The notes under the pieces are model-generated. The model did no database searches, was not told the DNA's origin, and worked only from the letters and a program-made list of their open reading frames with translations. From the sequence record MZ436830.1: a stretch of 64,000 bases of DNA; one strand, written 5' to 3'. Shown here piece after piece: positions 3,152-45,290 of this stretch. Source of the DNA: Escherichia phage JK1. The translations under genes were made by a program, and so were the position numbers. Positions within the stretch are counted from its first letter, which is position 1; each line of letters opens with the position of its first letter.

Positions 3152-4354
3152 TTATTTTGTAATAATGTCAAACTGTTCTTTAAAGCAGAAGCTTGAATCT
3201 TGATGCTGATACAAAAATTCATAAGCTTTTTCGCGTTCGCGGTCATAAAGAGTTCGGTCAGATGACAGTTCTTTAATACGTTCAAATGTTGATTCCATGT
3301 CATTTTCATCAAACCAAATGATACCGCTATCATGCGAGGTCAAAGGAGTATTATCAACACGGAATTTTAAATTTTCGCCAGTAGATTTCCAAAATACCGG
3401 AATTGTTCCACATGCACCAAGCTCGAGATGAGTATATTCTAAAGAACGTTGTAGATATTTTTTATCCAACTTACTCAACTGATAACCAAAACCGGATTTA
3501 CTCATACGTTCAAGCATTTCGCTATTTACATAACGGTCAAGAATTTGCGTTGGCAAATTAGGAGCAATTTTAATTTGGTCTACTTGATGAAGACGATAAT
3601 ACTCGTATGGAATTCCTTTTTCTTTAATAGGAATGAACGCTGGAGAACGTTCCAGACCTTCCATAATAGTACTTAGTCCTGCAGGTTTAAGATGTTTTTC
3701 ATGAAAATCAAACATCTGATAAAAACCTTTCCATGTAGTCGTACGACCAATCCAACGGTTGATATTCATGTTAATTTCAGAAACATCTTTCCAGTAGGTT
3801 GACCGAACCTTCGCAATATCCATAGGAGGCTGAAAGTTATATACTGTCGGTGCTTCTTCAATATCATCAAACAGAGAAACTGTTTCAGGATACCATTCTT
3901 TCATCAGAACTTTATTAAAATCACCATTATCAGAATGGCTAAAAATAACATCAGCTCGACGAACAGTTTCTTCTAATCCCAAATTTCGGCGCAAAGAAAG
4001 AGAAGAATGGTCATGTTGATAAACTACAACACGAACAGAAGGTTTAATGTTATCAATAATTTTTTTATAGTTATTAATAGTGTCTTCTTCAACCGAAGTA
4101 GCAGGAACTGAATTGATAATTAGAATATCACAATCATTTACCAGCTTAAGTGTTTTATCATATTCTTTTGCCAATAAAACCGGAATTGAAAATGATTTAT
4201 AATCATGCGCGCAATTACGAGTAAATGATTTATCTTTAGCATAAACCAAAGTTACTTCATGACCATTCTTAATAAACCAATCACGTTGCTCAAGAGAAAA
4301 TTTAGTTACACCACAACCTTCAAGACCTCGAGCCATAAAAATACATACTTTCAT
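3152..4354 (-). CDS. agt: DNA alpha-glucosyltransferase
   Basis: 400 aa; N-terminus MKVCIFMARGLEGCGVTKFSLEQRDWFIKNGHEV matches my recollection of T4 a-gt; located between 47 and 55. Confidence 0.85.
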   Translation of the reverse strand: MKVCIFMARGLEGCGVTKFSLEQRDWFIKNGHEVTLVYAKDKSFTRNCAHDYKSFSIPVLLAKEYDKTLKLVNDCDILIINSVPATSVEEDTINNYKKIIDNIKPSVRVVVYQHDHSSLSLRRNLGLEETVRRADVIFSHSDNGDFNKVLMKEWYPETVSLFDDIEEAPTVYNFQPPMDIAKVRSTYWKDVSEINMNINRWIGRTTTWKGFYQMFDFHEKHLKPAGLSTIMEGLERSPAFIPIKEKGIPYEYYRLHQVDQIKIAPNLPTQILDRYVNSEMLERMSKSGFGYQLSKLDKKYLQRSLEYTHLELGACGTIPVFWKSTGENLKFRVDNTPLTSHDSGIIWFDENDMESTFERIKELSSDRTLYDREREKAYEFLYQHQDSSFCFKEQFDIITK

Positions 4355-4597
4355 TTAATATCCTCTTTGTTTTGGTTTATTTTACCAAAAATTTATAAAG
4401 CAATATAGGAGCCGAAGCTCCTATCTACATAATACGCCATACAGAGGCTCGTTAGAACTTTTAAATTTTATGCGCTTATATTTTATAGTTCCTTCTGCTT
4501 TAGCTTTATCATGAGACGCTTTAAAGAGTCTCATCATTTCCTCTTTAGAGGAACGAATTTTATTATAATCTATTTCAGAAGTCTGGGTGTTCATCTT

Positions 4598-5848: not shown

Positions 5849-5926
5849 TTTCACCTCTTAGCTCAATTCATAGATCTATTATATCATAATATTTGAAGAT
5901 CTATCTTAAAGCATAGAGAATATCAG

Positions 5927-6196
5927 TTATCTAAGTAAACAGTATGCTTGGAATACTTTCTCCATCATCTTTTTAAATTCATGAATATCTATATAATGAC
6001 TAGTTAGATCAGCATGATATAAAAAGTCTAAAAACTTTTCATGTGTACTAACATATTCACTTTCATTTAATTCAGAAACATGGCTTTCCCAATATCCAAC
6101 ACCAGTCTTATTTGGGAAAAATGAAATTTTCATGTATTGGTCAACATAGAAAATGCCATAATTTTCAATAGTAATAGAAATATTAATAAATTTCAT
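5927..6196 (-). CDS. Hypothetical protein (55.x region)
   Basis: 89 aa ORF. Confidence 0.4.
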   Translation of the reverse strand: MKFINISITIENYGIFYVDQYMKISFFPNKTGVGYWESHVSELNESEYVSTHEKFLDFLYHADLTSHYIDIHEFKKMMEKVFQAYCLLR

Positions 6197-8395: not shown

Positions 8396-8866
8396 TTAAT
8401 CATGTTTCCACACCCCATCGGTATTTGACCAAAGTCGCTGATTATCTGATCCTCGCCACAGCTTTTTAGTCGGAAGATTTTTCTCATACTTCCCATCAAT
8501 AATAACATCAACATATTTAAGCATTTCTAGTTGTTTAATATCTTCAAACTTATATCCTGTCCACAACCAAATGCTTTTATTGGGATAAAGATTTTTTACT
8601 GTTTGAACCACAGAGTGAATCACGTCTCTGTTATCAGGATAAAGAGGGTCACCTCCGGTTATAGTTAATCCTTCTATATAATCATTATTCAAACATTCAA
8701 TCAATTGTTCTAGTGTTTCACCAGTAAATGGAATACCATTTCTAGCATTCCATGTTGATTTATTATAACACCCTTCGCATTTATGCAAACAACCTGTAAC
8801 GAAAAGAACGACCCTGCAACCAGGGCCATTAACAAAATCGCAAGGATAAAATCTATCATAATTCAT
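8396..8866 (-). CDS. nrdG: Anaerobic ribonucleotide reductase activating protein (radical SAM)
   Basis: 156 aa; CxxxCxxC cluster motif CLHKCEGC; 4-nt overlap with nrdD. Confidence 0.9.
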   Translation of the reverse strand: MNYDRFYPCDFVNGPGCRVVLFVTGCLHKCEGCYNKSTWNARNGIPFTGETLEQLIECLNNDYIEGLTITGGDPLYPDNRDVIHSVVQTVKNLYPNKSIWLWTGYKFEDIKQLEMLKYVDVIIDGKYEKNLPTKKLWRGSDNQRLWSNTDGVWKHD

Positions 8867-10680
8867 TGGTGTTTAACCCTATGCATGATTTCTTTATTTT
8901 TACCGAGATTAAATCCGCGTTCGTTTGGATTTCCCAAATAACCACATGTTCTTCTTATGGTGTTCATCTTTTTAGGATCAGTTTCTCCACAAATAGAACA
9001 AACAAATCCGTTTTCAGTAGGAGTCATTTCATGGGTACTTCCACATGTAAAACATTTATCTACTGGCATATTAACACCAAAATAATCTAAATGTTGTGCA
9101 GCATAATCCCATACGGCCTCAAGACCTTTCAAGTTATTTTTCATATCAGGAAGTTCAACATAAGAAATGTGACCACCTGTCGCAATGAAATGATATGGCG
9201 CTTCACGAGAAATCTTTTCAAACGGAGTAATATTTTCTTCTACTGAAACGTGGAAACTGTTAGTGTACCAGCCTTTATCGGTAACATCTTTTACACTTCC
9301 ATATTTTTCTGTATCAAGTTTACAGAAGCGATAACAAAGGTTTTCAGCAGGAGTCGAATATAAACTAAAAGCAAATCCAGTTCTTTCAGTCCACTGTTTA
9401 AGATGAGCATTCATTTTAGTTAAAATTTCTTGTCCAATATCACGACCGACAAGAATATTCAATTCGTGAATACCAATGTATCCTAGGGACACTGAACTTC
9501 TACCGTTTTTAAATAACTCAATTATGTCGTCATCAGGTTTAAGACGAACCCCGAATGCACCTTCTTGGTAAAGAATAGGAGCAACAGTAGCTTTAACTCC
9601 TTTTAAGGAACTAATTCTACACATCAATGCTTCAAAACACAGATCCATTCGTTCATTGAACAATTCAACAAATTTCTGTTCATTGAATTGTGTTCCAATA
9701 TAAGAATCTAACGCGATGCGAGGAAGATTCAATGTTACAACACCAAGATTATTACGTCCATCAAGAATTTCATTACCGGTCGAATCTTTCCATACGCTCA
9801 AGAAACTACGGCATCCCATCGGAGAAACAGGAACAGATGAACCAGTGATAGCTTTATTGTTCTTAGCCGAAATGATGTCAGGATACATTCTTTTGCTTGC
9901 GCACTCTAAAGCAAGCTGCTTAATATCATAGTTCGGGTCGTCTTTATAAAGATTAACACCTTCTTCAACGAACATAACAAGCTTAGGGAAAATAGGAGTT
10001 ATCCCATCACGACCAAGACCTTTAATACGATTTTTCAGAATTGCTTTCTGAATCATTCGTTCAGTCCAGTCAGTTCCCGTACCAAATGTAATTGTTACAA
10101 AAGGCGTTTGTCCGTTTGAACTAAAGAGAGTATTTACTTCATATTCATAAGCTTGGAATGCATCGTATACGTCTTTTTCTGTTTTAGATTGAGCATAATT
10201 CAATGCATCAGCGATTTGCCATTTTTCTGCATCCTCAATATGTTTTGCATAGGTGCGTTTAACATAAGGAGAAAGTACTTTATCTACATTAGCAAAAGTC
10301 GTTCCGCCGTATTGGTGAGAAGCAACCTGTGCAGTAATTTGTGCCATAATTGCAGTAGCAACACCGATTGATTTAGGAGTTTCAATCTGTGCATTACCAA
10401 GCTTAAATCCGTTCTCAAGCATTCCTTTTAAATCTACTAAACAGCAATTAGTAAATGGAAGAGCAGGGGAATAATCAATATCATGGAAATGGATAATTCC
10501 GCTTTCATGAGCTTTCATAATAAAAGACGGGACCATATTTTTGGCAATGTGTTTAGACACAATACCAGCCATAAGGTCCCGTTGAGTTGGAAAAACACGA
10601 GAATCTTTATTAGCATTCTCGTTTAAAAGGTCTTTATTAGTTTTATGAATCAATCCTTCAATTTCTTTTTCAATTGTCAT
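8863..10680 (-). CDS. nrdD: Anaerobic ribonucleoside-triphosphate reductase, uninterrupted
   Basis: 605 aa continuous ORF; C-terminal glycyl-radical motif RRTCGYLG and Zn-ribbon CFTCGS..CSICGE. Confidence 0.9.
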   Translation of the reverse strand: MTIEKEIEGLIHKTNKDLLNENANKDSRVFPTQRDLMAGIVSKHIAKNMVPSFIMKAHESGIIHFHDIDYSPALPFTNCCLVDLKGMLENGFKLGNAQIETPKSIGVATAIMAQITAQVASHQYGGTTFANVDKVLSPYVKRTYAKHIEDAEKWQIADALNYAQSKTEKDVYDAFQAYEYEVNTLFSSNGQTPFVTITFGTGTDWTERMIQKAILKNRIKGLGRDGITPIFPKLVMFVEEGVNLYKDDPNYDIKQLALECASKRMYPDIISAKNNKAITGSSVPVSPMGCRSFLSVWKDSTGNEILDGRNNLGVVTLNLPRIALDSYIGTQFNEQKFVELFNERMDLCFEALMCRISSLKGVKATVAPILYQEGAFGVRLKPDDDIIELFKNGRSSVSLGYIGIHELNILVGRDIGQEILTKMNAHLKQWTERTGFAFSLYSTPAENLCYRFCKLDTEKYGSVKDVTDKGWYTNSFHVSVEENITPFEKISREAPYHFIATGGHISYVELPDMKNNLKGLEAVWDYAAQHLDYFGVNMPVDKCFTCGSTHEMTPTENGFVCSICGETDPKKMNTIRRTCGYLGNPNERGFNLGKNKEIMHRVKHQ

Positions 10681-11150
10681 TTTAAACTCTTTCTAAGCTG
10701 CTTCTTAAATGAAGCTATTAACTGTGTTTTGGTGTCAGATTCATTATATTCAAATCCTCTTTGAAGCATCTCGGCCATCATTTCCTCTTTTCCTAAACGA
10801 GAAAATTCCTTTGATTTATCTCCAACAAAGTTAGGGTGAATATTATTTTGGGTGTAATCGGATTTTAAGTAAGTAAGTAAATTTTCTAACCATTCAAGAT
10901 AATCAACACCTTGTCCCTTTAAGCCAGAACGATTAAATTTATGCTTCATTTGACCTTCTGCGGCATTACAGAGATTACAAAGCAATCCACGTACCTTTCC
11001 TGCTTTTGGTCCATTTAATTCATGGTCATGGTCGAGGTGATTAGCTTGAACATCAGGATTTAGTTCTCGTTGGCAAATTAAGCATTTACCGTTTTGTGCA
11101 TCATAAAATTTCTGTTTTTCTTCTTTATATAATTTGCCAGTCAATAACAT
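10677..11150 (-). CDS. 49: Endonuclease VII (Holliday junction resolvase)
   Basis: 157 aa; MLLTGKLYKEEKQKFYDAQNGKCLICQRELNPDVQANHLDHDHE matches T4 gp49 as I recall it. Confidence 0.85.
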   Translation of the reverse strand: MLLTGKLYKEEKQKFYDAQNGKCLICQRELNPDVQANHLDHDHELNGPKAGKVRGLLCNLCNAAEGQMKHKFNRSGLKGQGVDYLEWLENLLTYLKSDYTQNNIHPNFVGDKSKEFSRLGKEEMMAEMLQRGFEYNESDTKTQLIASFKKQLRKSLK

Positions 11151-12122: not shown

Positions 12123-12305
12123 TTTTCACCAATTAATTTCGCAATTTATTAAGTTCTTCATCATCAATCCAGGATTCTAGTCCTGATGGCAGGTCACATT
12201 CAATTTCCCAAAGAAGTTCTTCAATTTTCTGAAGACGATCTAGTTCTTCAGCTGGAATAGTAACCATTGACGGAGCTCGTGATACATTAATATCGTAAAT
12301 CATAT

Positions 12306-12521
12306 TTACCCCAATTTAACCATACAATCGCCGTATTTCCACTTAGAAATAGACTTTTCACCGTTAGAATAATAAACTTCGAGTTTAGCACGATTATTTT
12401 TAATTTGAATAACCTTGGCTGTCATCAAAGTTCCATACCCATAGTAAACTGCAACTTCATCACCTACATATACCGCGCTTCCGCGGTAATCATGGATATA
12501 ATCAGTTCCTTCGAGAATCAT
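12306..12521 (-). CDS. Hypothetical small protein
   Basis: 71 aa ORF; 4-nt overlap with nrdC. Confidence 0.45.
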   Translation of the reverse strand: MILEGTDYIHDYRGSAVYVGDEVAVYYGYGTLMTAKVIQIKNNRAKLEVYYSNGEKSISKWKYGDCMVKLG

Positions 12522-12781
12522 TTAAAGTATTCTCGCAATTGGTCAAATCCACCAATATGACTTCCATCAGGAGCAAATACCTGAGGCATTGTTAAGCCGA
12601 TTTGAGTATCACGACCTAGTTTAGTCAGAAGCTCAGCAATTTTCTCATCATCAAAAACACCTTTTTCCGGCATAATGTTGATAAATTCAAACGGCTGTTT
12701 CTTCACGGTCAAAAGACGTTTTGCATTATCACAATACACGCATTTATGAATGCTGCTATCATAACCATATACTTTAAACAT
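12518..12781 (-). CDS. nrdC: Thioredoxin/glutaredoxin NrdC
   Basis: 87 aa; CVYC active-site motif; matches T4 NrdC as I recall it. Confidence 0.8.
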   Translation of the reverse strand: MFKVYGYDSSIHKCVYCDNAKRLLTVKKQPFEFINIMPEKGVFDDEKIAELLTKLGRDTQIGLTMPQVFAPDGSHIGGFDQLREYFK

Positions 12782-12782
12782 A

Positions 12783-13025
12783 TTATTCCTTAATTCCTAG
12801 TACTTGTTTAAAAGTCTCGTCGTAATCAAGACTTTGGCCCGTTTGTTCTTTATGTTTGTATATAATATCACTTACTTCTGATAGCATATTTTTATATGAA
12901 CGAGTTAAAGCAGATTTAAGCACGCTGTATCTATCAGGAAATTTACCATGTTCATTATAATACGCTATTGCTAATTCACGGACTGCCTTTTCAGCAGTCT
13001 CCATATATTCTTTACGCTTTGTCAT
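12783..13025 (-). CDS. Hypothetical protein; start set at internal Met MTKRKEY
   Basis: ORF track 12783..13166 overlaps the upstream ORF by 155 nt, so the internal start is preferred. Confidence 0.4.
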
Positions 13026-19825: not shown

Positions 19826-20839
19826 TCATTTATAATAACTTTGGTGGTTTTCAAGATAGACCTTCTCAAGGAAGTCATCCCAGAAACTCATGTCTACTGT
19901 TTTAGGCATACCATTCTTAGAAGCTTCAGTAGATGCTGCTTCTACTTGATCGACCACATCTTCCAAAAACTCTTGAACTGTTTTAAATGGATGTTTACCC
20001 AACTTCACGTCGAGAATAAATGGAGCATCTTGGAGTGGATAAATCAAGTCGCCAGTTTTGTAAATTTCCAATAGTTGAAGTCCACCACGACAAGCATGAC
20101 TTAGTGCTTTCCAATCAATACCTTCATTAGCTTCGGCTTTACGAGCACGTTCACCATATTCAGCATCTAATTTGTTCAGTGACTGCTTAAGCTCAATAAG
20201 AGAAAGCGTTGTCTGATATTTACGACCCAGCACTGTATAGAACGTTTGTGGACCTGTTTTCTCATGATTATGGAACACCCATTCACAGAATTCGTTTTCT
20301 GGAAGACGATGCTTAATATCTTCAACTTTAGTACGACGCTGCTTAATGGAACCGTCTTCTTGGTAATCAACCCATTGCTCAGGGATTTGATTAACTACTT
20401 TCAATACATCGCGTAATGCAGCCAAACGAGAACCCTTGACACCGTATTTAGAAGCTTGCTTGCGGACATATCCTAAATAGGATTTCATGTTAGTCGTATA
20501 AAAACGAGAACGGTTGTCTTGAATAAACTTCCACACATCAGGCAAATCAGATTTAACCACTAGTTTAGGTGGAGTATGAAGCATATCCAATGCTACAGTT
20601 TCACCATCTGCTGCTAATTTAAAGAAATATTTAAGACTGTATAGTTCATGGTCAATATCATCTTTAGTGTTTTTAGATGATGTATTGTTAGTATTTTTAC
20701 TCATATGCTCTTTAACATTTCCGACAAGAATATCGCGAGCAGGAGGAACAAAGATTTCTTTAAAATCTACATCAGATTCTGGGGTAGAAGTTCCATAAAG
20801 ATGACTACCAAAATAGCTTTTCATTACTGTTTTCATCAT
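19826..20839 (-). CDS. Hypothetical protein (T4 nrdC.11-like position)
   Basis: 337 aa ORF. Confidence 0.6.
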   Translation of the reverse strand: MMKTVMKSYFGSHLYGTSTPESDVDFKEIFVPPARDILVGNVKEHMSKNTNNTSSKNTKDDIDHELYSLKYFFKLAADGETVALDMLHTPPKLVVKSDLPDVWKFIQDNRSRFYTTNMKSYLGYVRKQASKYGVKGSRLAALRDVLKVVNQIPEQWVDYQEDGSIKQRRTKVEDIKHRLPENEFCEWVFHNHEKTGPQTFYTVLGRKYQTTLSLIELKQSLNKLDAEYGERARKAEANEGIDWKALSHACRGGLQLLEIYKTGDLIYPLQDAPFILDVKLGKHPFKTVQEFLEDVVDQVEAASTEASKNGMPKTVDMSFWDDFLEKVYLENHQSYYK

Positions 20840-21297
20840 TCAGCCTTATATTCAATAACAGGACATACTTTAGCTTTACGAGCTTTTAAAAATTCAACGA
20901 TAATCGATTTCTTGGGTTGAATAGGAGGTAAACCTTTATACGCCCTATCAATATTTTCTACGTGTAAAGCATAATCCTTTTTCCATTTATAATCTTTATA
21001 TTTTTCACGCAAATGTGCAGGAATAACAAATGAACCGATAATAAGTAAAACAACCAAAAGCGCAAGTATAAATGCCGATGGAAGAAGAGTCCATAAACTA
21101 CCGAAAATAAGCCAACGTTGTAGGCTTTCTGCACAAATAATTGTTAGCCCTACGAGTATAGCACACCCAAAAATAGAAACGAAAAATGTAGGAATGGCAA
21201 TAGACCAAAAATATGCGCATAGTGTCTTAGGTCGTTGCCATTCATCGTTAAACAATTTGAATAATTTATAGTGCCAAGAGTTTTCATTAATAATCAT
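20836..21297 (-). CDS. Membrane protein (multiple TM segments)
   Basis: 153 aa; hydrophobic stretches AIPTFFVSIFGCAILVGLTIICA and LLALLVVLLIIGSFVI. Confidence 0.55.
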   Translation of the reverse strand: MIINENSWHYKLFKLFNDEWQRPKTLCAYFWSIAIPTFFVSIFGCAILVGLTIICAESLQRWLIFGSLWTLLPSAFILALLVVLLIIGSFVIPAHLREKYKDYKWKKDYALHVENIDRAYKGLPPIQPKKSIIVEFLKARKAKVCPVIEYKAE

Positions 21298-21299
21298 AA

Positions 21300-21821
21300 T
21301 TATCCTTTCATTGAAGGCGTAACGGTTGTTAAATACTTAATCATAGCTTCAGCTTCTGATTTTGATAATGAAATTTCTCCATTGTTTTGACGAATAGAAA
21401 TAAAATCCGGATGACGGTCACCACCAGCTTTTAAAACACACATATAAGTATCAGTTTCACCTTCAATATTTGAAATGATTGAAGCAGTTCCACATGAATG
21501 TGGTTTTTGATAAATCAATGCAGCTTTTCTTCCGCCATTTGACTGCTCATAGGCTTTTAATACATCAAGCAAATCAGTTCTTTTATCAATAGCTAAAATG
21601 TTATTTTCATCTTCAATGTTAAATCCTTCGGATACTTCATAAAGCGTTACCCATAAATCACCAATGTCAATAACAGCATTTACTTTTCCACGGCTTTCAA
21701 GAGTATGACAAATTTTCTTGATTTCGTCATAACTCATTTTAATAATATCATCTCCTTGAATAAGGAAGATGTCATTTTTAAATTCAACACGAATTAAACC
21801 ACTTTCACTTGAAATAAACAT
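21300..21821 (-). CDS. Hypothetical protein, paralog of the following ORF
   Basis: 173 aa; C-terminus EAEAMIKYLTTVTPSMKG resembles that of 21828..22382. Confidence 0.5.
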   Translation of the reverse strand: MFISSESGLIRVEFKNDIFLIQGDDIIKMSYDEIKKICHTLESRGKVNAVIDIGDLWVTLYEVSEGFNIEDENNILAIDKRTDLLDVLKAYEQSNGGRKAALIYQKPHSCGTASIISNIEGETDTYMCVLKAGGDRHPDFISIRQNNGEISLSKSEAEAMIKYLTTVTPSMKG

Positions 21822-21827
21822 ATTTCC

Positions 21828-22382
21828 TCACTTTGAAATCATAGTTGGAATAACAGAATCAAGATAAGTCTTTAGTGCAATAGCTTCGTCTTTGGTAAAT
21901 GTGACAATATGTGCTCGAGAATCATCAATTTGGCGAACAAGTACGACATCGCCATCTTCATAAGAAGTCTTGACATCCAAAGTCGTAGTATAATTTGCAG
22001 CTACTGGATTAATAATGCTAGCACCACGATCTTTAGCCCATTGAAGTTTAGCCTTTTCGGGTGTTTCGACTGTTTCAGATTCCAAGAATTCTTTCACCTT
22101 GGCAACGAATGTTGCCCAATTGTTGATAGAAAGACACATAAATTCAGTTTCAATATTACCGCCGTAAAGGCCACGATAAAAACGAACTTGGAGGTCGCCT
22201 GTAATATTAGTTACACCGGTAACTCCTGAGGGAGCATAAGATAAAATCGCAGCCAGTTCCATAGGAAGAATAGTAATACTATCGTCTTCCTGCGTCAGAA
22301 CGTATACATTATCACGTTTTTCGATAACCAGGTCACCGAACAAATCAGTTGTTTCAATTACAGCTTTCATATTATTTACCAA
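21828..22382 (-). CDS. Hypothetical protein, paralog of the preceding ORF
   Basis: 184 aa; C-terminus EAIALKTYLDSVIPTMISK. Confidence 0.5.
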   Translation of the reverse strand: MVNNMKAVIETTDLFGDLVIEKRDNVYVLTQEDDSITILPMELAAILSYAPSGVTGVTNITGDLQVRFYRGLYGGNIETEFMCLSINNWATFVAKVKEFLESETVETPEKAKLQWAKDRGASIINPVAANYTTTLDVKTSYEDGDVVLVRQIDDSRAHIVTFTKDEAIALKTYLDSVIPTMISK

Positions 22383-22557
22383 TTAAAGTTTCAATATAAG
22401 AATCAAGATTTACTTTAGCTTCTTCCATAAGAGTTTTGTATTTAATCTTGTTAGCATGTCCGGAGAAAGCTGATTCATCAATAATTGTTGATGTATGAAC
22501 AGCTTTACTATACGTCTCAATTAATTCTCTTAATTTAAAAGCCTGCTCACTTGTCAT
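22372..22557 (-). CDS. Small helical protein, member of the xEQxxKLxELI paralog family
   Basis: 61 aa; MTSEQAFKLRELIETY N-terminus. Confidence 0.45.
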   Translation of the reverse strand: MTSEQAFKLRELIETYSKAVHTSTIIDESAFSGHANKIKYKTLMEEAKVNLDSYIETLIGK

Positions 22558-25094: not shown

Positions 25095-25103
25095 ATCACC
25101 TTC

Positions 25104-25289
25104 TTAAAGCGTATTCACATAAGCTATTAATTCATTTTCTTTCTTATCAAACAGATCAGCAAATTCTTCCTGCTGTTCAGGAGATAGCGGGCCGTATTCA
25201 TCATAAAAGGTGTTTGCTTCTGTATGCTCATCTAGAAGTTCATGGATAAGCTCAAACAATTTATCTTTTTGTTCTTTACTCAGACTCAT
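25104..25289 (-). CDS. Small helical acidic protein, xEQxxKLxELI family-like
   Basis: 61 aa; MSLSKEQKDKLFELIHELL. Confidence 0.45.
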   Translation of the reverse strand: MSLSKEQKDKLFELIHELLDEHTEANTFYDEYGPLSPEQQEEFADLFDKKENELIAYVNTL

Positions 25290-25455
25290 ATATTAATTTC
25301 CAGGAGTTTTAAGATAATTCGCTTTTGCTTAAATATTTCCATCGTTAAATGATCAATATCTTTTTGACCAATTCCAATAGCAAAACCCTTATTTACGGCA
25401 AGTTCAATTAAATTATCAATATTGCGTAAAACTTCATAACGTAACTCAAAATTAT

Positions 25456-25683
25456 TCATTTTGGTTCACCTTCTTTAACGAAATCAGGATAAGGATAAAA
25501 TCCTGAATAAAATCCTTCACCTTTATGATTGATGCATCCTTTATTAGAACAATAGCACCAATAATCGAAATCACAAGCCATTTCATCGTTGCATAAAGCA
25601 AAAACAACCGGCCACTTACACTTTTCACAGTGGGCATTTTTAAGAATACTAGTTTGGCTCATAACCATGTAACCTTTAAGCAA
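25456..25683 (-). CDS. Small Cys-rich (putative zinc-binding) protein
   Basis: 75 aa with 8 Cys, including CEKCKW and CYCSNKGC. Confidence 0.45.
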   Translation of the reverse strand: MLKGYMVMSQTSILKNAHCEKCKWPVVFALCNDEMACDFDYWCYCSNKGCINHKGEGFYSGFYPYPDFVKEGEPK

Positions 25684-29864: not shown

Positions 29865-30338
29865 TTATTTGAACGATTTAACGTACTGAATAGAACCTTT
29901 ACTATTCACAAAGGCAATTTTACCATTTTTATTATACATGGTAGCAGTACGTTGATAACCATAAGTTTGTTTACCAGATTGATAACCAACTAATGCGAAA
30001 TTATCTTCGCCCATTTTATTCTGTTTAGCGCGAATGCGTTCATGACCATGTGCCATAAGAACCTTAGCATCACCGGTTGCAATGGATCGACGAGTTTTTT
30101 CATCTTCAACTGTATTAACAAAGTCGTCAAATGAATCAAATTTAGCATGAGATTTATTATACAGTTTTCCATCTACTGCATAATTATATCCCTGTACATC
30201 CATCTCAACTTCTGTACCATCATCCAATACAGCAGTGATTTTTTGACCTTTTTTAAATTTCAAAAGATCAGTAAAAGATTCAGCAATAATTTGAGAATTA
30301 ATAGCTGCTTCAGTGATAAATTCTTGATATGTTTTCAT
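29865..30338 (-). CDS. Internal-protein-like ORF with capsid-targeting-sequence (CTS)-like N-terminus
   Basis: 157 aa; N-terminus MKTYQEFITEA matches the T4 internal-protein CTS (MKTYQEFIAE) with an I-x-E protease-type site; immediately downstream of denV. Confidence 0.6.
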   Translation of the reverse strand: MKTYQEFITEAAINSQIIAESFTDLLKFKKGQKITAVLDDGTEVEMDVQGYNYAVDGKLYNKSHAKFDSFDDFVNTVEDEKTRRSIATGDAKVLMAHGHERIRAKQNKMGEDNFALVGYQSGKQTYGYQRTATMYNKNGKIAFVNSKGSIQYVKSFK

Positions 30339-30347
30339 ATGTTTCCT

Positions 30348-30764
30348 TTAAATGTAAATATTTTTACCGTAATACTTATACCAATGTGGTTTCATTAAAA
30401 TTTTTTCATCAAGTCGTTGTTGACTCAATTTAATAGCTGATTTGCATGGATTATAATCATTTTTCCATTCTATTGGAATATCGCTGATGTCAGGAACTTC
30501 AGTATCTTTTATACTGAACCCGCGTTTTAAGCATTCCGTTATAATGTCTAATTGACGCTTTCGCAAAAATTCTAACTTATCGTAAAAGAACGTAACATGA
30601 CCAGAACCTAAAATAAACTCGGAAGATATTTTAAAATCTTTAACGCGCTTACCGTTTGCCACATGCTTACGAACTATACCAAAAACACGTGGCAATTCAC
30701 GATATTCTGCAATTAAATGCTGATCAGTAAGTTCAGATACTAAAGTCAAATTAATACGAGTCAT
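30348..30764 (-). CDS. denV: Endonuclease V (pyrimidine dimer DNA glycosylase)
   Basis: 138 aa; [37 protein letters not shown] matches T4 DenV as I recall it. Confidence 0.9.
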
Positions 30765-35154: not shown

Positions 35155-35189
35155 TACCAAAAAGCCCCAACCTTTTGGTCGGGGCTAAG
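35155..35189 (-). repeat. 35-nt direct repeat, copy 1 (terminator hairpin plus U-run), downstream flank of the CTS-like ORF
   Basis: taccaaaaagccccaaccttttggtcggggctaag; 32/35 identical to 35690-35724. Confidence 0.7.
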
Positions 35190-35193
35190 AATG

Positions 35194-35655
35194 TTATTTG
35201 ATTTGTTTAGCAGACCAAATGCGATCTTTAATAATTTTTTGGATGTCTTCAACATACTCTAGGTCATGAGCATGTGGATTATCTTTGAAACTATGAGCTC
35301 GCGCAAGTTTCTGGCCTTCGGTCTTAATTATCAAAAGTTCTTTAAGAATTGCTTCATACCTAGAGATAATTCCTTTAGCAATATTTTTTTCTTGTGCTGC
35401 TTTAGGGTCAGCCTTAGGAGCAGGTTTACCAGAAGGTTTTTCGAAAGCCGCACCAGTAGCAACCAGGCTTTTCCAGGCGGTGGTAACATAGTTACCCACA
35501 AAGCCTTCAGCTCTCATATCGTCATAGAACTTGTACCGAGATTCGTCAGAAGCATCTTTATAAGAATATTTACCAGCTTTAATAGCAGCAGTTGCTACAG
35601 CGCGAACATCTGAAGCGGATGCTTCGGTCATTAAAAATTGAGCATAAGTTTTCAT
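35194..35655 (-). CDS. Candidate packaged internal protein: CTS-like N-terminus, own late promoter
   Basis: 153 aa; N-terminus MKTYAQFLMTEA (CTS-like, L-x-E site); AGGAAA ribosome-binding site; TATAAATA 28 nt upstream; flanked by direct repeats. Confidence 0.55.
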   Translation of the reverse strand: MKTYAQFLMTEASASDVRAVATAAIKAGKYSYKDASDESRYKFYDDMRAEGFVGNYVTTAWKSLVATGAAFEKPSGKPAPKADPKAAQEKNIAKGIISRYEAILKELLIIKTEGQKLARAHSFKDNPHAHDLEYVEDIQKIIKDRIWSAKQIK

Positions 35656-35683
35656 TATTATTTCCTGTGTTAATTAACTCATC

Positions 35684-35691
35684 TATTTATA
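35684..35691 (-). promoter_or_regulatory. Late promoter TATAAATA upstream of ORF 35194..35655
   Basis: Plus tatttata at 35684-35691. Confidence 0.5.
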
Positions 35692-36035: not shown

Positions 36036-36111
36036 TGGTCGAGGCAGTAGGGATCGAACCTACGACCCAGGACTTAGAAGGTCCTTGCTCTTCCTTCTGA
36101 GCTATGCCTCG
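36036..36111 (-). tRNA. tRNA-Arg (anticodon UCU)
   Basis: Hand-folded: 76 nt, CCA encoded, anticodon loop CUUCUAA, T-arm GGTTCGATCC. Confidence 0.8.
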
Positions 36112-36115
36112 TATT

Positions 36116-36190
36116 TGGCGGACGTGATAGGATTCGAACCTATAACCAATCGCTTAACAGGCGATCGCTCTGCCATTGAGCTACACATCC
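36116..36190 (-). tRNA. tRNA-Asn (anticodon GUU)
   Basis: Hand-folded: 75 nt, CCA encoded, anticodon loop CUGUUAA, T-loop TTCGAAT. Confidence 0.7.
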
Positions 36191-36194
36191 AAAT

Positions 36195-36281
36195 TGGTGG
36201 GGAGTGGTGGAGTCGAACCACCCGAGTCGCAATGACAATGGATTTACAGTCCACACCGCTACCTCTACGGGATAACTCCCC
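36195..36281 (-). tRNA. tRNA-Tyr (anticodon GUA), long variable arm
   Basis: Hand-folded: 87 nt, anticodon stem-loop GTGGA-CUGUAAA-TCCAT, type II variable arm, CCA encoded. Confidence 0.7.
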
Positions 36282-36290
36282 AAATTAATT

Positions 36291-36365
36291 TGGTGGCCCT
36301 GGGTGGAATTGAACCACCATCTGGCGATTATGAGTCGCTTGCTTGAACCTTCCAGCTACAGGGCC
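36291..36365 (-). tRNA. tRNA with CAU anticodon (Ile via modified C34, or Met)
   Basis: Hand-folded: 75 nt, acceptor GGCCCTG/CAGGGCC, anticodon loop CUCAUAA. Confidence 0.7.
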
Positions 36366-36366
36366 T

Positions 36367-36442
36367 TGGTGCTGATTGACGGAATCGAACCGCCGACCTT
36401 CTCATTACAAGTGAGTTGCTCTACCTACTGAGCTAAATCAGC
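36367..36442 (-). tRNA. tRNA-Thr (anticodon UGU)
   Basis: Hand-folded: 76 nt, D-arm GCTCAGTAGGTAGAGC, anticodon loop CUUGUAA. Confidence 0.8.
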
Positions 36443-36447
36443 AAAAC

Positions 36448-36537
36448 TGGCGGAGGCGATAGGATTTGAACCTATGAGTCGCCGGAGCGACTGCCGGTTT
36501 TCAAGACCGGTGCATTAAACCACTCTGCCACGCCTCC
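36448..36537 (-). tRNA. tRNA-Ser (anticodon UGA), long variable arm
   Basis: Hand-folded: 90 nt, anticodon stem-loop CCGGT-CUUGAAA-ACCGG. Confidence 0.8.
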
Positions 36538-36539
36538 AG

Positions 36540-36613
36540 TCTCCATACAAGGATTTGAACCTTGGACCTCCTGATCCCAAATCAGGCGCTCTACCAAACT
36601 GAGCTACACGGAG
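36540..36613 (-). tRNA. tRNA-Pro (anticodon UGG)
   Basis: Hand-folded: anticodon loop UUUGGGA; CCA not encoded. Confidence 0.75.
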
Positions 36614-36623
36614 TAAATTAAAT

Positions 36624-36697
<74 letters not shown>

Positions 36698-36702
36698 AAA
36701 TT

Positions 36703-36789
36703 TGGTGCGAGAAGTGGGACTCGAACCCACAAGGAAATCATTCCGCAGCATTTTAAGTGCTGTGCCTTTACCAATTTGACCATTCTCGC
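36703..36789 (-). tRNA. tRNA-Leu (anticodon UAA), long variable arm
   Basis: Hand-folded: 87 nt, anticodon stem-loop CAGCA-CUUAAAA-TGCTG; one nucleotide separates it from tRNA-Gln (dimeric precursor). Confidence 0.8.
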
Positions 36790-36790
36790 G

Positions 36791-36863
36791 CTGGGAATAA
36801 AGGACTCGAACCTTTGCATCCTGGAATCAAAATCCAGTGCCTTACCAACTTGGCTAATTCCCA
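36791..36863 (-). tRNA. tRNA-Gln (anticodon UUG)
   Basis: Hand-folded: acceptor TGGGAAT/ATTCCCA, anticodon loop UUUUGAU. Confidence 0.8.
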
Positions 36864-36949: not shown

Positions 36950-37465
36950 TTAAAGCAAATTAAACATTTTAACGGTCGGCAAAACAATTTCTTTTTCTAT
37001 ATAAGAGTATTTAACACTCTCAACTACACGCAAAAAATCATAATCATAATACTCAGAAGCACTGCCTAAAATATTAATAAGTCCTTCAAGCACTTTATTA
37101 CCATTCACAAAGAATAAGTCAAATACGCGTTCTTCGTCTTCTTCGGATTTATTACCAAGGTCAACTTCTATATCAAAGACCTTTTTAATGAATTCTGGAT
37201 AAAGTTGTTCTGAGAACAGTCCTTCAACCAAGTATTCATAAATAAAAAGCGATTGCTCGCTGAACAAGCCATTACCACAATAACGTTCAGCTTTAGTACT
37301 AGAATGTCTACTTTTAAACTTCTTTAAAAGATATTGAAATTGTAAGATTTCATGCTCTTCTACGCCAAACAGTGTTTTAGTTTTATAGTTGTCACCATCA
37401 TTTTCCCAGGTAGTGACATCAATTACGTAACCCTGCGGAATTGTAGTACCTAAACAAATATTCAT
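36950..37465 (-). CDS. Hypothetical acidic protein
   Basis: 171 aa ORF between the tRNA cluster and the internal-protein-like gene. Confidence 0.5.
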   Translation of the reverse strand: MNICLGTTIPQGYVIDVTTWENDGDNYKTKTLFGVEEHEILQFQYLLKKFKSRHSSTKAERYCGNGLFSEQSLFIYEYLVEGLFSEQLYPEFIKKVFDIEVDLGNKSEEDEERVFDLFFVNGNKVLEGLINILGSASEYYDYDFLRVVESVKYSYIEKEIVLPTVKMFNLL

Positions 37466-37755
37466 TTGCTCACCATATTAATGTAAGTATATTCAATACA
37501 TTCAAGACCCAAAGGATTCTTGAAAATATCATATTCAAGAGGACCTTTTTCCGTTTCAATAAAGAAATCAAAATTTACTGTATTAAATTTACGGTCTTCC
37601 TTCACTAATTTAACCTGAGAAGATGAACGGTCAATGTAAACCTTTTCAACTTCAAAACATGTTAAAATGCCATAATCATCAATCAAGGCTTTAGCTGCTT
37701 CTTGATCATATTTATATCCATTTTCAATGGATGATACTTTAGCATAAAGAATCAT
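37462..37755 (-). CDS. Hypothetical protein
   Basis: 97 aa; 4-nt overlap coupling. Confidence 0.5.
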   Translation of the reverse strand: MILYAKVSSIENGYKYDQEAAKALIDDYGILTCFEVEKVYIDRSSSQVKLVKEDRKFNTVNFDFFIETEKGPLEYDIFKNPLGLECIEYTYINMVSK

Positions 37756-37757
37756 TA

Positions 37758-38168
37758 TCAGCCTCTATCAACGATAGCATGAGTATGGGCATTTACGATT
37801 TGCCACCAGTCGAAACGATTGGAACCATAATCTGGTTTATTTTCATTTTCTTTAATGATATCACGCAGTTTATCTTCTGTTTCAGCATACGCAATTAAAT
37901 CATCATATCCGCCACAAGGATAATAATTATCACCTGCGAATAAAAGAAAATTTACCTTAGATGGATTTACGTAATAATGGTCTTTAGGATATTTAGTTCC
38001 TCTCCAATCAGTTACTTCAACATAACGGTAAGAAAATCCATTTTTACTTTCAATCCAACTCCACGCTTCAAAAGGAGTATTAAAAACTTTATCAGGTATT
38101 AAATTACCTTCAAAATGAGAAGGATTTGCATAATCCCCGGCATAAACATAATATTCGTTAATACTCAT
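37758..38168 (-). CDS. Hypothetical protein
   Basis: 136 aa, Tyr/Trp-rich. Confidence 0.5.
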   Translation of the reverse strand: MSINEYYVYAGDYANPSHFEGNLIPDKVFNTPFEAWSWIESKNGFSYRYVEVTDWRGTKYPKDHYYVNPSKVNFLLFAGDNYYPCGGYDDLIAYAETEDKLRDIIKENENKPDYGSNRFDWWQIVNAHTHAIVDRG

Positions 38169-38354
38169 CTATTCACCTTTAGAAATTTTATCCATAACGA
38201 TAGCGATTAAACCAATTAAAAATGCTACTACAAGTGAAAACACATTTTCTGCTGTAGTCAATAATCCACATATAAATCCAACAAACATTGAAAAACTAAA
38301 AGCGGAAGCAGAAATTGCAATAGCAACATTTCGAATTAATTCACAACGTTTCAT
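38169..38354 (-). CDS. Small membrane protein
   Basis: 61 aa; ISASAFSFSMFVGFICGLL and LVVAFLIGLIAIV hydrophobic segments. Confidence 0.45.
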   Translation of the reverse strand: MKRCELIRNVAIAISASAFSFSMFVGFICGLLTTAENVFSLVVAFLIGLIAIVMDKISKGE

Positions 38355-38382
38355 TTTATTCTCCTCGGTAGTTGATAGGGTA

Positions 38383-38412
38383 ATAGTATCACTACCCTAT
38401 CTAAAAGTAAAC
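38383..38412 (-). promoter_or_regulatory. Early promoter (GTTTAC-N18-TACTAT), copy of the module at 38683-38712
   Basis: Plus gtaaac 38407-38412, atagta 38383-38388; 24-nt ttgatagggtaatagtatcactac identical to 38672-38695. Confidence 0.5.
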
Positions 38413-38646
38413 TTATTTTTTACGAAAAATTGATTTATATTTATCAGCCCATTTCTCAATGACTTTTGCCGGGCCATAGATAACAAAGTAATCGCCAAAC
38501 TCTTCACCACCGAGTTGACCGAAATCATCTAATGCATCACGAAGAACTCCATGAGGCATTTCACCCATTTTATCTTTCTTGCCAGTGTAAATAAACTCAA
38601 CTTTTACATCAGCAGTTTCAGCAATAAATTCTTGATACGTTTTCAT
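38413..38646 (-). CDS. Internal protein with canonical CTS (IPI-like by position, just upstream of 57B)
   Basis: 77 aa from MKTYQEFIAE (exact T4 CTS decapeptide); GGAGAA ribosome-binding site; ORF track extends 6 codons upstream. Confidence 0.65.
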   Translation of the reverse strand: MKTYQEFIAETADVKVEFIYTGKKDKMGEMPHGVLRDALDDFGQLGGEEFGDYFVIYGPAKVIEKWADKYKSIFRKK

Positions 38647-38682
38647 TTTGTTCTCCAATTTCACATTTGTTTTGATAGGGTA

Positions 38683-42157: not shown

Positions 42158-42748
42158 ATGCTCTTTACATTTTTTGATCCGATTGAATATGCGGCCAAAA
42201 CGGTGAATAAAAACGCGCCGACTATTCCTATGACAGATATTTTTAGAAACTATAAAGACTATTTCAAACGTGCTCTTGCGGGATACCGCTTACGTACTTA
42301 TTATATTAAAGGTTCACCACGCCCGGAAGAATTAGCAAATACTATATATGGAAATCCACAGTTGTATTGGGTTTTATTGATGTGTAATGATAATTATGAT
42401 CCATATTATGGATGGATTACTTCACAAGAAGCTGCTTATCAAGCATCTATACAAAAATACAAAAATGTGGGTGGAGATCAGATAGTATATCATGTGAATG
42501 AGAACGGTGAAAAATTTTATAATTTAATATCATACGATGATAATCCATATGTTTGGTATGATAAAGGCGATAAAGCTAGAAAATATCCTCAATATGAAGG
42601 AGCACTTGCTGCGGTCGATACGTATGAAGCTGCTGTTCTTGAAAATGAAAAACTTCGTCAAATAAAAATAATAGCAAAATCAGACATCAATTCATTTATG
42701 AACGACCTTATACGTATAATGGAGAAATCTTATGGAAATGATAAGTAA
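42158..42748 (+). CDS. 53: Baseplate wedge protein gp53
   Basis: 196 aa; first gene of the plus-strand baseplate operon. Confidence 0.8.
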   Translation: MLFTFFDPIEYAAKTVNKNAPTIPMTDIFRNYKDYFKRALAGYRLRTYYIKGSPRPEELANTIYGNPQLYWVLLMCNDNYDPYYGWITSQEAAYQASIQKYKNVGGDQIVYHVNENGEKFYNLISYDDNPYVWYDKGDKARKYPQYEGALAAVDTYEAAVLENEKLRQIKIIAKSDINSFMNDLIRIMEKSYGNDK

Positions 42749-44459
42749 TAACCTTAATTGGTTTGTTGGTGTTGTTGAAGATAGAATGGACCCATTAAAA
42801 TTAGGTCGTGTTCGTGTTCGTGTGGTTGGTCTGCATCCACCACAAAGAGCGCAAGGTGATGTAATGGGTATTCCAACTGAAAAATTACCATGGATGTCAG
42901 TTATTCAACCTATAACTTCTGCAGCAATGTCTGGAATTGGAGGTTCTGTTACTGGACCGGTAGAAGGAACTAGAGTTTATGGTCATTTTTTAGACAAATG
43001 GAAAACTAACGGAATTGTCCTTGGCACGTATGGTGGAATAGTTCGCGAAAAACCGAATAGACTTGAAGGATTTTCTGACCCAACTGGGCAATATCCTAGA
43101 CGTTTAGGAAATGATACTAACGTACTAAACCAAGGCGGTGATGTAGGATATGATTCCTCTTCTAATGTTATTCAAGATAGTAACTTAGACACTGCAATAA
43201 ATCCTGATGATAGACCACTATCAGAGATTCCAACTGATGATAATCCAAACATGTCAATGGCTGAAATGCTTCGCCGTGATGAAGGATTAAGACTAAAAGT
43301 TTATTGGGATACTGAAGGATATCCGACAATTGGTATTGGTCATCTTATCATGAAGCAGCCAGTTCGTGATATGGCTCAAATTAATAAAGTTTTATCAAAA
43401 CAAGTTGGTCGTGAAATTACAGGAAATCCAGGTTCTATTACAATGGAAGAAGCGACGACTTTATTTGAGCGTGATTTGGCTGATATGCAACGTGACATTA
43501 AATCACATTCTAAAGTAGGACCAGTCTGGCAAGCTGTCAACCGTTCTCGCCAAATGGCATTAGAAAATATGGCATTTCAGATGGGTGTTGGCGGTGTAGC
43601 TAAATTTAACACAATGTTAACTGCTATGTTAGCAGGAGATTGGGAAAAAGCATATAAAGCCGGTCGTGATTCATTGTGGTATCAACAAACAAAAGGCCGT
43701 GCATCCCGTGTTACCATGATTATTCTTACGGGGAATTTGGAATCATATGGTGTTGAAGTGAAAACTCCAGCTAGGTCTTTATCGGCAATGGCTGCGACTG
43801 TAGCTAAATCTTCTGACCCTGCTGACCCTCCTATTCCAAATGACTCGAGAATTTTATTCAAAGAACCAGTTTCTTCATATAAAGGCGAATATCCTTATGT
43901 GCATACAATGGAAACTGAAAGCGGACATATTCAGGAATTTGATGATACCCCTGGGCAAGAACGATACAGATTAGTTCATCCAACTGGAACTTATGAAGAA
44001 GTATCACCGTCAGGAAGAAGAACAAGAAAAACTGTTGATAATTTGTATGATATAACCAACGCTGATGGTAATTTTTTGGTAGCCGGTGATAAAAAGACTA
44101 ACGTCGGTGGTTCAGAAATTTATTACAACATGGATAATCGTCTTCACCAAATAGATGGAAGCAATACAATATTTGTACGTGGCGATGAAACTAAGACGGT
44201 TGAAGGTAATGGAACTATCCTAGTTAAAGGTAATGTTACTATTGTAGTTGAAGGTAATGCTGACATTACAGTTAAAGGAGATGCTACCACTTTAGTTGAA
44301 GGAAATCAGACTAATACAGTAAATGGAAATCTTTCTTGGAAAGTTGCTGGGACAGTTGATTGGGACGTTGGTGGTGATTGGACAGAAAAAATGGCATCTA
44401 TGAGTTCTATTTCATCTGGTCAATACACAATTGATGGATCGAGGATTGACATTGGCTAA
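42732..44459 (+). CDS. 5: Baseplate hub / cell-puncturing protein gp5 with lysozyme domain
   Basis: 575 aa; internal lysozyme domain MAEMLRRDEGLRLKVYWDTEGYPTIGIGHL (paralog of e); C-terminal VEGN-type beta-helix repeats. Confidence 0.9.
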   Translation: MEMISNNLNWFVGVVEDRMDPLKLGRVRVRVVGLHPPQRAQGDVMGIPTEKLPWMSVIQPITSAAMSGIGGSVTGPVEGTRVYGHFLDKWKTNGIVLGTYGGIVREKPNRLEGFSDPTGQYPRRLGNDTNVLNQGGDVGYDSSSNVIQDSNLDTAINPDDRPLSEIPTDDNPNMSMAEMLRRDEGLRLKVYWDTEGYPTIGIGHLIMKQPVRDMAQINKVLSKQVGREITGNPGSITMEEATTLFERDLADMQRDIKSHSKVGPVWQAVNRSRQMALENMAFQMGVGGVAKFNTMLTAMLAGDWEKAYKAGRDSLWYQQTKGRASRVTMIILTGNLESYGVEVKTPARSLSAMAATVAKSSDPADPPIPNDSRILFKEPVSSYKGEYPYVHTMETESGHIQEFDDTPGQERYRLVHPTGTYEEVSPSGRRTRKTVDNLYDITNADGNFLVAGDKKTNVGGSEIYYNMDNRLHQIDGSNTIFVRGDETKTVEGNGTILVKGNVTIVVEGNADITVKGDATTLVEGNQTNTVNGNLSWKVAGTVDWDVGGDWTEKMASMSSISSGQYTIDGSRIDIG

Positions 44460-44988
44460 TATACTTCCAATGAGCGCTGATTTAGGAGAATCCATGGAAG
44501 GTTCTTCTATCGACGTCACCTTTACCGCTCAATTAGAAACAGGTGAAACGTTAGTATCTATAAATATAACTAGTTACGAAGAAACTCCTGGGGTTTTAGT
44601 AGAAGAAAATCGCTTATATGGAACATATGAATCTGTATTTGGTTTCGGAAATGACGCGTTGAAATATCGTTTAGGCGATGAATTTAAAACTGCTGCTTCA
44701 TGGGAAGAACTTCCTACTGATTCTGATACTCAGTTGTATTTGTGGAAAGCTCCTCAGAATCTCCAGAAGACATTCACTTACGAAGTAACATTAATATATG
44801 ACTACCAAGAACAAAGTGAATCTGGAGGTTCTGGCAGTAATTCTAGGTCATCTTCTGATACTACTGAACCGACAGATCCTCCTGCTCCAGTAAGAAAAAC
44901 TCTCGTTAAAAATTATACTAAAACTATAGTTGGAAATTGGAGTCGTTGGGCTAATAAATTGAGAAGCTATGTGTATGAGAGGCCATAA
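44431..44988 (+). CDS. gp5.1-like protein
   Basis: 185 aa; start overlaps the gene 5 end (alternative start MSADLGE near 44470). Confidence 0.5.
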
Positions 44989-45282
44989 ATGTCAGGATTA
45001 AGTTATGATAAGTGTGTTACTGCTGGCCATGAAGCGTGGCCTCCAACAGTTGTGAATGCTACACAAAGTAAAGTATTCACTGGAGGAATTGCTGTTCTCG
45101 TAGCAGGTGATCCAATTACAGAACATACAGAAATTAAAAAGCCATATGAAACACATGGCGGAGTGACACAACCCAGAACTTCTAAGGTATATGTCACTGG
45201 AAAGAAAGCTGTTCAAATGGCTGATCCAATATCATGCGGTGATACTGTGGCTCAGGCATCATCTAAAGTATTCATTAAATAG
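44989..45282 (+). CDS. 5.4: PAAR-repeat spike-tip protein gp5.4
   Basis: 97 aa; position immediately before gene 6. Confidence 0.7.
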
Positions 45283-45290
45283 GATTTAAA

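Follow-up and report, generated by a model that had tools for sequence, protein, structure and literature searches.

Escherichia phage JK1 (sequence record MZ436830.1) was examined here over a stretch of 64,000 nucleotides (nt), which we call the window. The subject is its nrdD-nrdG locus, at positions 8,396 to 10,680, together with the homing-endonuclease genes and introns found in the corresponding part of phage T4. The locus consists of two reductase genes, with gene 49 adjoining them on the same strand:

8396-8866, minus strand: nrdG, radical-SAM activase of NrdD; 156-amino-acid open reading frame (ORF), assigned with Pfam
8863-10680, minus strand: nrdD, class III (anaerobic) ribonucleoside-triphosphate reductase large subunit; uninterrupted 605-amino-acid ORF
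10677-11150, minus strand: gene 49, endonuclease VII (Holliday-junction resolvase); 100% amino-acid identity to T4 gp49, Pfam Endonuclease_7 and Endonuc-dimeris

The NrdD translation covers the whole of the Pfam family NRDD (PF13597, 1-562 of 562, E 1.7e-171), matches Gly_radical (PF01228) on residues 481-586 and contains the motif RRTCGYLG, while NrdG matches Fer4_12 (E 7e-49) and Radical_SAM and contains 'CLHKCEGC', a motif of the CxxxCxxC type. The locus therefore has the domains by which a class III reductase is recognized, namely a full-length NRDD domain with a C-terminal glycyl-radical domain and an adjoining radical-SAM activase with a 4Fe-4S motif. Judged by sequence, nrdD is an intact and presumably functional class III ribonucleotide reductase gene, and its 99.7% amino-acid identity to T4 NrdD suggests that the product would reduce ribonucleoside triphosphates anaerobically. 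The stop codon of nrdD and the start codon of nrdG share the four nucleotides ATGA at 8863-8866 (coding strand, CACCAATGAATTATG), and translation of NrdD and NrdG is probably coupled via this overlap. The original prediction had described nrdD as a single 605-amino-acid ORF overlapping nrdG by 4 nt, and the ORF list, the junction sequence and Pfam bear out both the coordinates and the description. A further 4-nt overlap links gene 49 to the start of nrdD; the gene 49 product is a nuclease but not a homing endonuclease.

Our reference for comparison was T4 (NC_000866, with its annotation), in which the nrdD (sunY)-mobC-nrdG locus (42446-46385) has the same genes in the same order and orientation. 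Only T4, however, carries a 1033-nt group I intron encoding I-TevII in nrdD and the 601-bp mobC between nrdD and nrdG, both of which the window lacks. Once spliced, T4 nrdD has the length of the window gene (1818 nt), and the two differ at 57 nt (96.9% nucleotide identity) and at two of 605 amino acids, V65F and R417Q. The T4 intron, inserted after nrdD nt 538, is precisely missing, and alignment to the T4 region, proposed as a check of the original prediction, leaves a continuous ORF. That prediction was right in placing an intron in T4 nrdD but misnamed its enzyme as I-TevIII: the nrdD (sunY) intron codes for the GIY-YIG enzyme I-TevII, whereas I-TevIII, an HNH enzyme, comes from the nrdB intron and is intact in RB3 but truncated in T4 (Edgell, Gibb and Belfort 2010, PMC2988022 Table 1).

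The six T4 homing-endonuclease sites in the interval

The window belongs to the genus Tequatrovirus, as judged by its high nucleotide identity to T4 and related phages and by the shared gene order. In a megablast search of 50,697 phage records, its 25-kilobase (kb) blocks matched RB27, RB18, PE37, QOTSP and many others at about 97% identity; no full-length match at 99% identity or more was found among these records, the best reaching about 97-98%. By blastn it is collinear with T4 from 33.5 to 99.8 kb, that is, from gene 46 to gene 18, in aligned blocks that are mostly 92-98% identical, and every gene held in common with T4 matches its T4 orthologue over the whole length, with no insertion.

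Six T4 endonuclease genes lie in this interval: mobB between a-gt and a-gt.2, mobC between nrdG and nrdD, I-TevII in the nrdD group I intron, mobD between nrdC.11 and mobD.1, segB between tRNA-Arg and tRNA-Ile, and segC between 5.1 and 5.3 (T4 annotation; PMC2988022 Table 1). All six of these positions are empty of endonuclease genes in the window:

4346-4369, minus strand: empty mobB site between a-gt and a-gt.2; 24 nt against 861 nt in T4 (37818-38678), blastn
8863-8866, minus strand: empty mobC/segH site, direct nrdD-nrdG junction; T4-only gap of 601 nt (42917-43517), blastn
10105-10144, minus strand, insertion between 10143 and 10142: unoccupied nrdD intron site and region matching the I-TevII homing site; T4-only gap of about 1035 nt (44815-45849), blastn
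20836-21821, minus strand: T4 mobD position, otherwise occupied; 962 nt of unrelated sequence against 808 nt found only in T4, blastn
36036-36863, minus strand: ten contiguous transfer RNA (tRNA) genes without segB (ARAGORN, Rfam); 796 nt found only in T4 (segB and tRNA-Ile), blastn
44985-44990, plus strand: empty segC site where gene 5.1 abuts gene 5.4; T4-only gap of 557 nt (80218-80774), segC and 5.3 missing

Since mobC lies between nrdD and nrdG in T4, the 4-nt overlap of these genes marks a second empty site at the locus; the original prediction had overlooked mobC, and also the empty mobB and segC sites. It had correctly seen no segB-like ORF in the tRNA region, where genes for tRNA-Arg, -Asn, -Tyr, -Met, -Thr, -Ser, -Pro, -Gly, -Leu and -Gln follow one another with gaps of at most 10 nt, which leave no room for such an ORF among them; tRNA-Asn, -Tyr and -Met sit where T4 has segB and tRNA-Ile. 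T2L likewise has no segB and carries genes for tRNA-Asn, -Tyr and -Met, the tRNA-Asn gene being the preferred SegB cleavage site (PMC2330249).

At the mobD position, beyond the genes downstream of nrdC, the prediction that no HNH or GIY-YIG ORF of mobD size would be found also holds. Instead there is a predicted membrane-protein ORF of 153 amino acids (20836-21297, minus strand; PHROG 944, 'membrane protein') and an extra y05I/mobD.1-like ORF (21300-21821, minus strand; Pfam T4_y05I_N and T4_y05I_C, PHROG 1502), neither with an HNH or GIY-YIG match in Pfam or PHROGs. Two y05I/mobD.1-like paralogues thus stand in tandem after the membrane-protein ORF (21300-21821 and 21828-22382, minus strand), where T4 has mobD and mobD.1.

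Searches for endonuclease genes and introns

Homing endonucleases were sought in the window by similarity, by profile and by motif. All 15 T4 homing endonucleases, used as tblastn queries, found nothing better than E 0.025; with T4 I-TevII and its HY03 homologue the best E value was 1.6 or worse; and two endonucleases known from relatives, the HNH protein of phage teqhad and the I-TevII-like protein of HY03, were not found either. Profile hidden Markov models, built from the N-terminal catalytic regions of nine T4 GIY-YIG proteins and of four Mob proteins, were run on all 1665 stop-to-stop segments of at least 20 amino acids in the six frames, and found no gene with either the GIY-YIG profile (best E 1.7) or the HNH profile (best E 0.74). 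In T4 itself the same profiles recovered all nine GIY-YIG genes (all at E 5e-24 or lower) and all five mob genes (E 3.5e-15 or lower), including a mobA remnant of 37 amino acids at E 3.5e-15. Motif scans gave two chance matches only, both of which recur at the orthologous, non-endonuclease loci of T4, the GIY-YIG one in T4 gp47.1.

Twelve ORFs of the window have no T4 counterpart. Together with a divergent mobD.1 homologue, all 13 were scanned with Pfam and ten also with PHROGs, and these scans assigned none to a nuclease family, nor any to a Pfam HNH family. T4 MobC, the positive control for Pfam, matched HNH above the family cut-off; for I-TevII the Pfam control is weak, with matches just under the NUMOD and SegE_GIY-YIG cut-offs. 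The segments that do not align to T4 were considered as places for endonuclease genes and rejected, no nuclease being encoded in 5922-6181, 12130-12516, 20841-21802, 21963-22545, 25095-25657, 29866-30474, 35189-35688, 36970-37483 or 38393-38613; their ORFs belong to domain-of-unknown-function (DUF) or PHROG families, or encode internal head proteins, a membrane protein and y05I-like proteins. Two minus-strand ORFs flanking the rnaC/rnaD-tRNA block and not present in T4, 35194-35655 (153 amino acids) and 36950-37465 (171 amino acids), were likewise considered as unrecognized endonucleases and set aside, having no catalytic motif and no Pfam match; they fall in PHROGs 2280 and 2290, which have no assigned function.

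For introns, Rfam reported only the ten tRNAs at the gathering score, and no group I intron (RF00028) at that score or at E up to 0.5, the relaxed threshold returning tRNA-related noise only; the T4 nrdD intron, as control, scores 105 bits. The six-frame search for GIY-YIG and HNH motifs, which had been suggested along with the original prediction, thus yielded no endonuclease under conditions that recovered the T4 genes, and neither the alignment to T4 nor the scans revealed an intron or endonuclease ORF that had been overlooked by eye.

Other differences from T4 were noted in passing. The T4 genes ipII and ipIII (T4 65360-66453) and ipI are missing from the window, and genes for other internal virion proteins lie near the T4 ip positions, at 29865-30338 and 38413-38664 (PHROG 3155 and PHROG 8111). 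A 56-amino-acid acidic ORF without T4 counterpart (12133-12303, minus strand) has a sub-threshold Pfam match to the T7 gp5.9 RecBCD inhibitor (E 4.7e-4, 20.5 bits against a cut-off of 24.5).

Distribution and origin of the empty sites

The arrangement of the window is that of T2 and of most other Tequatroviruses (RB27, RB18, CM8, slur07), in which nrdD is uninterrupted and meets nrdG directly, and the tRNA block contains no segB. Homology to nrdD-nrdG was found in 1034 records, against 25 records with the T4-type nrdD intron (mostly T4 isolates, together with RB55, RB59, PST, fPS-2, G8, RPN226, Manna, EC128 and U5); mobC was present in 32. With a 171-nt probe spanning the nrdD-nrdG junction, a single match covered at least 80%, which we read as uninterrupted, in 606 of 738 records, T2 included. 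A 105-nt probe across the unoccupied intron site was covered to at least 80% in 618 of 677 records and matched at 99% or more in 253, T2 at 100%. T4 insertions are thus rare among sequenced phages; the uninterrupted, endonuclease-free state is that of the majority of T4 relatives, and T4 is the exception. That T4 is exceptionally rich and its relatives poor in homing endonucleases has been on record since the late 1980s, and reviews of 2010 repeated the point. Published counts are 15 for T4, one for T2, two each for RB18 and RB14, and none for RB26 and RB69 (Petrov et al. 2010, PMC2993671 Table 5). The observation made on the window is therefore correct but ordinary, the status of T4 as an outlier being already stated in published reviews.

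Other insertions are known at these positions. Phages of the HY03 type have the same nrdD gene and the same insertion site as the window, but HY03 (455-1500) carries there a second, diverged intron lineage with an I-TevII-like gene (56% amino-acid identity), and has SegH after nrdD where T4 has mobC; the window lacks both. The 5' core of the HY03 intron visibly aligns with the T4 intron, yet it gives no RF00028 match even at E up to 1. In teqhad (12397-13005), the tRNA cluster holds a gene for a 202-amino-acid HNH endonuclease, unrelated to the T4 endonucleases by blastp (E up to 1e-3), at a place where the window has tRNA-Gln (36790-36863).

The exon sequence around the intron site is itself distinctive. 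The 57 nucleotide differences from T4 are distributed unevenly along nrdD: a stretch of 22 nt (nrdD nt 537-558) holds seven of them and one of 40 nt (nt 537-576; window 10105-10144) nine, all silent, which makes this the densest cluster of the gene, placed around the insertion site; codon-level permutation gives p of about 0.004 (24-nt window) and 0.002 (42-nt window). The 105-nt junction of JK1 is identical to that of T2, the common haplotype; T4 and EC128, both intron-bearing, share another, and HY03 carries a third, so that at least three synonymous haplotypes exist at this site among Tequatroviruses. The proposition that no intron-free phage has T4-type exon flanks had to be given up, as SG1, which is intron-free, is of the T4 type on the exon-2 side; for the full 105-nt T4-type junction, the best intron-free record reaches 95.2%.

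A similar pattern is seen beside the mobC site. Over the first 300 nt of nrdG (window 8567-8866) identity to T4 is 45-90%, and nt 1-240 match the mobC-less phage SG1 at 93-97%; the last 170 nt agree with T4 at about 100%. A sharp mosaic boundary thus runs through nrdG, and the divergent part lies directly beside the T4 mobC insertion site, much as the silent cluster of nrdD surrounds the intron site. In T4, mobC is flanked by an imperfect direct repeat of about 21 nt (T4 42896-42916 and 43518-43538), and its first seven codons (MNYDRIY) duplicate the start of nrdG, and hence the insertion lies exactly on the nrdD-stop/nrdG-start junction.

The window thus contains an intact nrdD-nrdG pair, six sites without a mobile element, and no other endonuclease gene or intron in its 64 kb. 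We are highly confident that it represents a Tequatrovirus, closely related to T4, in which every T4 homing-endonuclease position of the interval carries the common, empty allele. Most likely, the T4 arrangement arose by insertion, of a group I intron carrying I-TevII into nrdD and of the free-standing HNH gene mobC between nrdD and nrdG, and we infer that the empty arrangement is the older and that of T4 the derived one. Some points weigh against this reading. Rfam misses the divergent nrdD intron of HY03, therefore its negative result is weak by itself, and the case against introns is made chiefly by the collinearity with T4, gene by gene. The ORFs at 35194-35655 and 36950-37465 are specific to the window and of no known function, though they have no nuclease motif. 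Endonuclease genes may lie elsewhere, the window being 64 kb of a genome of about 167 kb: the original prediction of an intron- and homing-endonuclease-poor relative of T4 stands for the window, and does not extend to the whole genome, as nine of the 15 T4 endonuclease loci, namely mobA, segF, segA, segD, segE, I-TevIII, mobE, I-TevI and segG, lie outside. Finally, the data fit 'never invaded' and 'invaded, later lost' alike.

The last of these points corresponds to a history in which the lineage once had the nrdD intron, perhaps along with mobC and further endonuclease genes, and then lost them precisely, which could have come about by recombination with an intron-free phage, as in the proposed cycle of gain, decay and loss of homing elements. 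Tequatrovirus genomes are heavily mosaic, and SG1 provides an intron-free allele with the intron-associated flank on its exon-2 side, so that alleles of this kind do exist. The window, however, has at the intron site the majority haplotype shared with T2 and not the intron-associated one, its nrdG is of the mobC-less type, and none of the six sites showed any trace of an intron or endonuclease gene, so that we regard secondary loss as unlikely. A quite different possibility is that the silent differences in the region matching the I-TevII homing site were selected because they prevent cleavage, the intron-free state being actively protected. The density and non-random clustering of these differences, the three or more synonymous haplotypes at the site, and the failure of any intron-free record to exceed 95.2% identity to the full T4-type junction speak for such selection. 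GIY-YIG endonucleases of the I-TevII group, on the other hand, tolerate many substitutions in their targets, and patches of similar or greater divergence are frequent across the window, away from any endonuclease site. Co-conversion, a process documented in T4 homing (PMC2988022) by which an incoming intron brings along neighbouring exon sequence of its donor, accounts for the clustering just as well and is the simplest reading of the silent cluster. A protected allele is accordingly improbable in our judgement. That the assembly collapsed or omitted mobile elements, or that the window is a chimera of several phages, is hardly conceivable: RB27 aligns with positions 1-24998 in one single collinear piece, the same junctions occur in hundreds of independent genomes, and all reading frames are intact in the gene map against T4.

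In this region the nrdD-nrdG locus, like five other T4 endonuclease sites, is seen in its ordinary, uninvaded form, and the significance of the region lies mainly in correct annotation. If the silent haplotype did prove to be a resistance allele, the T2-type sequence would persist by escaping cleavage, thereby confining the nrdD intron to a small minority of Tequatroviruses. The phage would be expected to behave like T2 in mixed infection with T4, its sites being cut and converted by the T4 endonucleases, and such a phage could serve as a natural recipient in homing or marker-exclusion crosses with T4.

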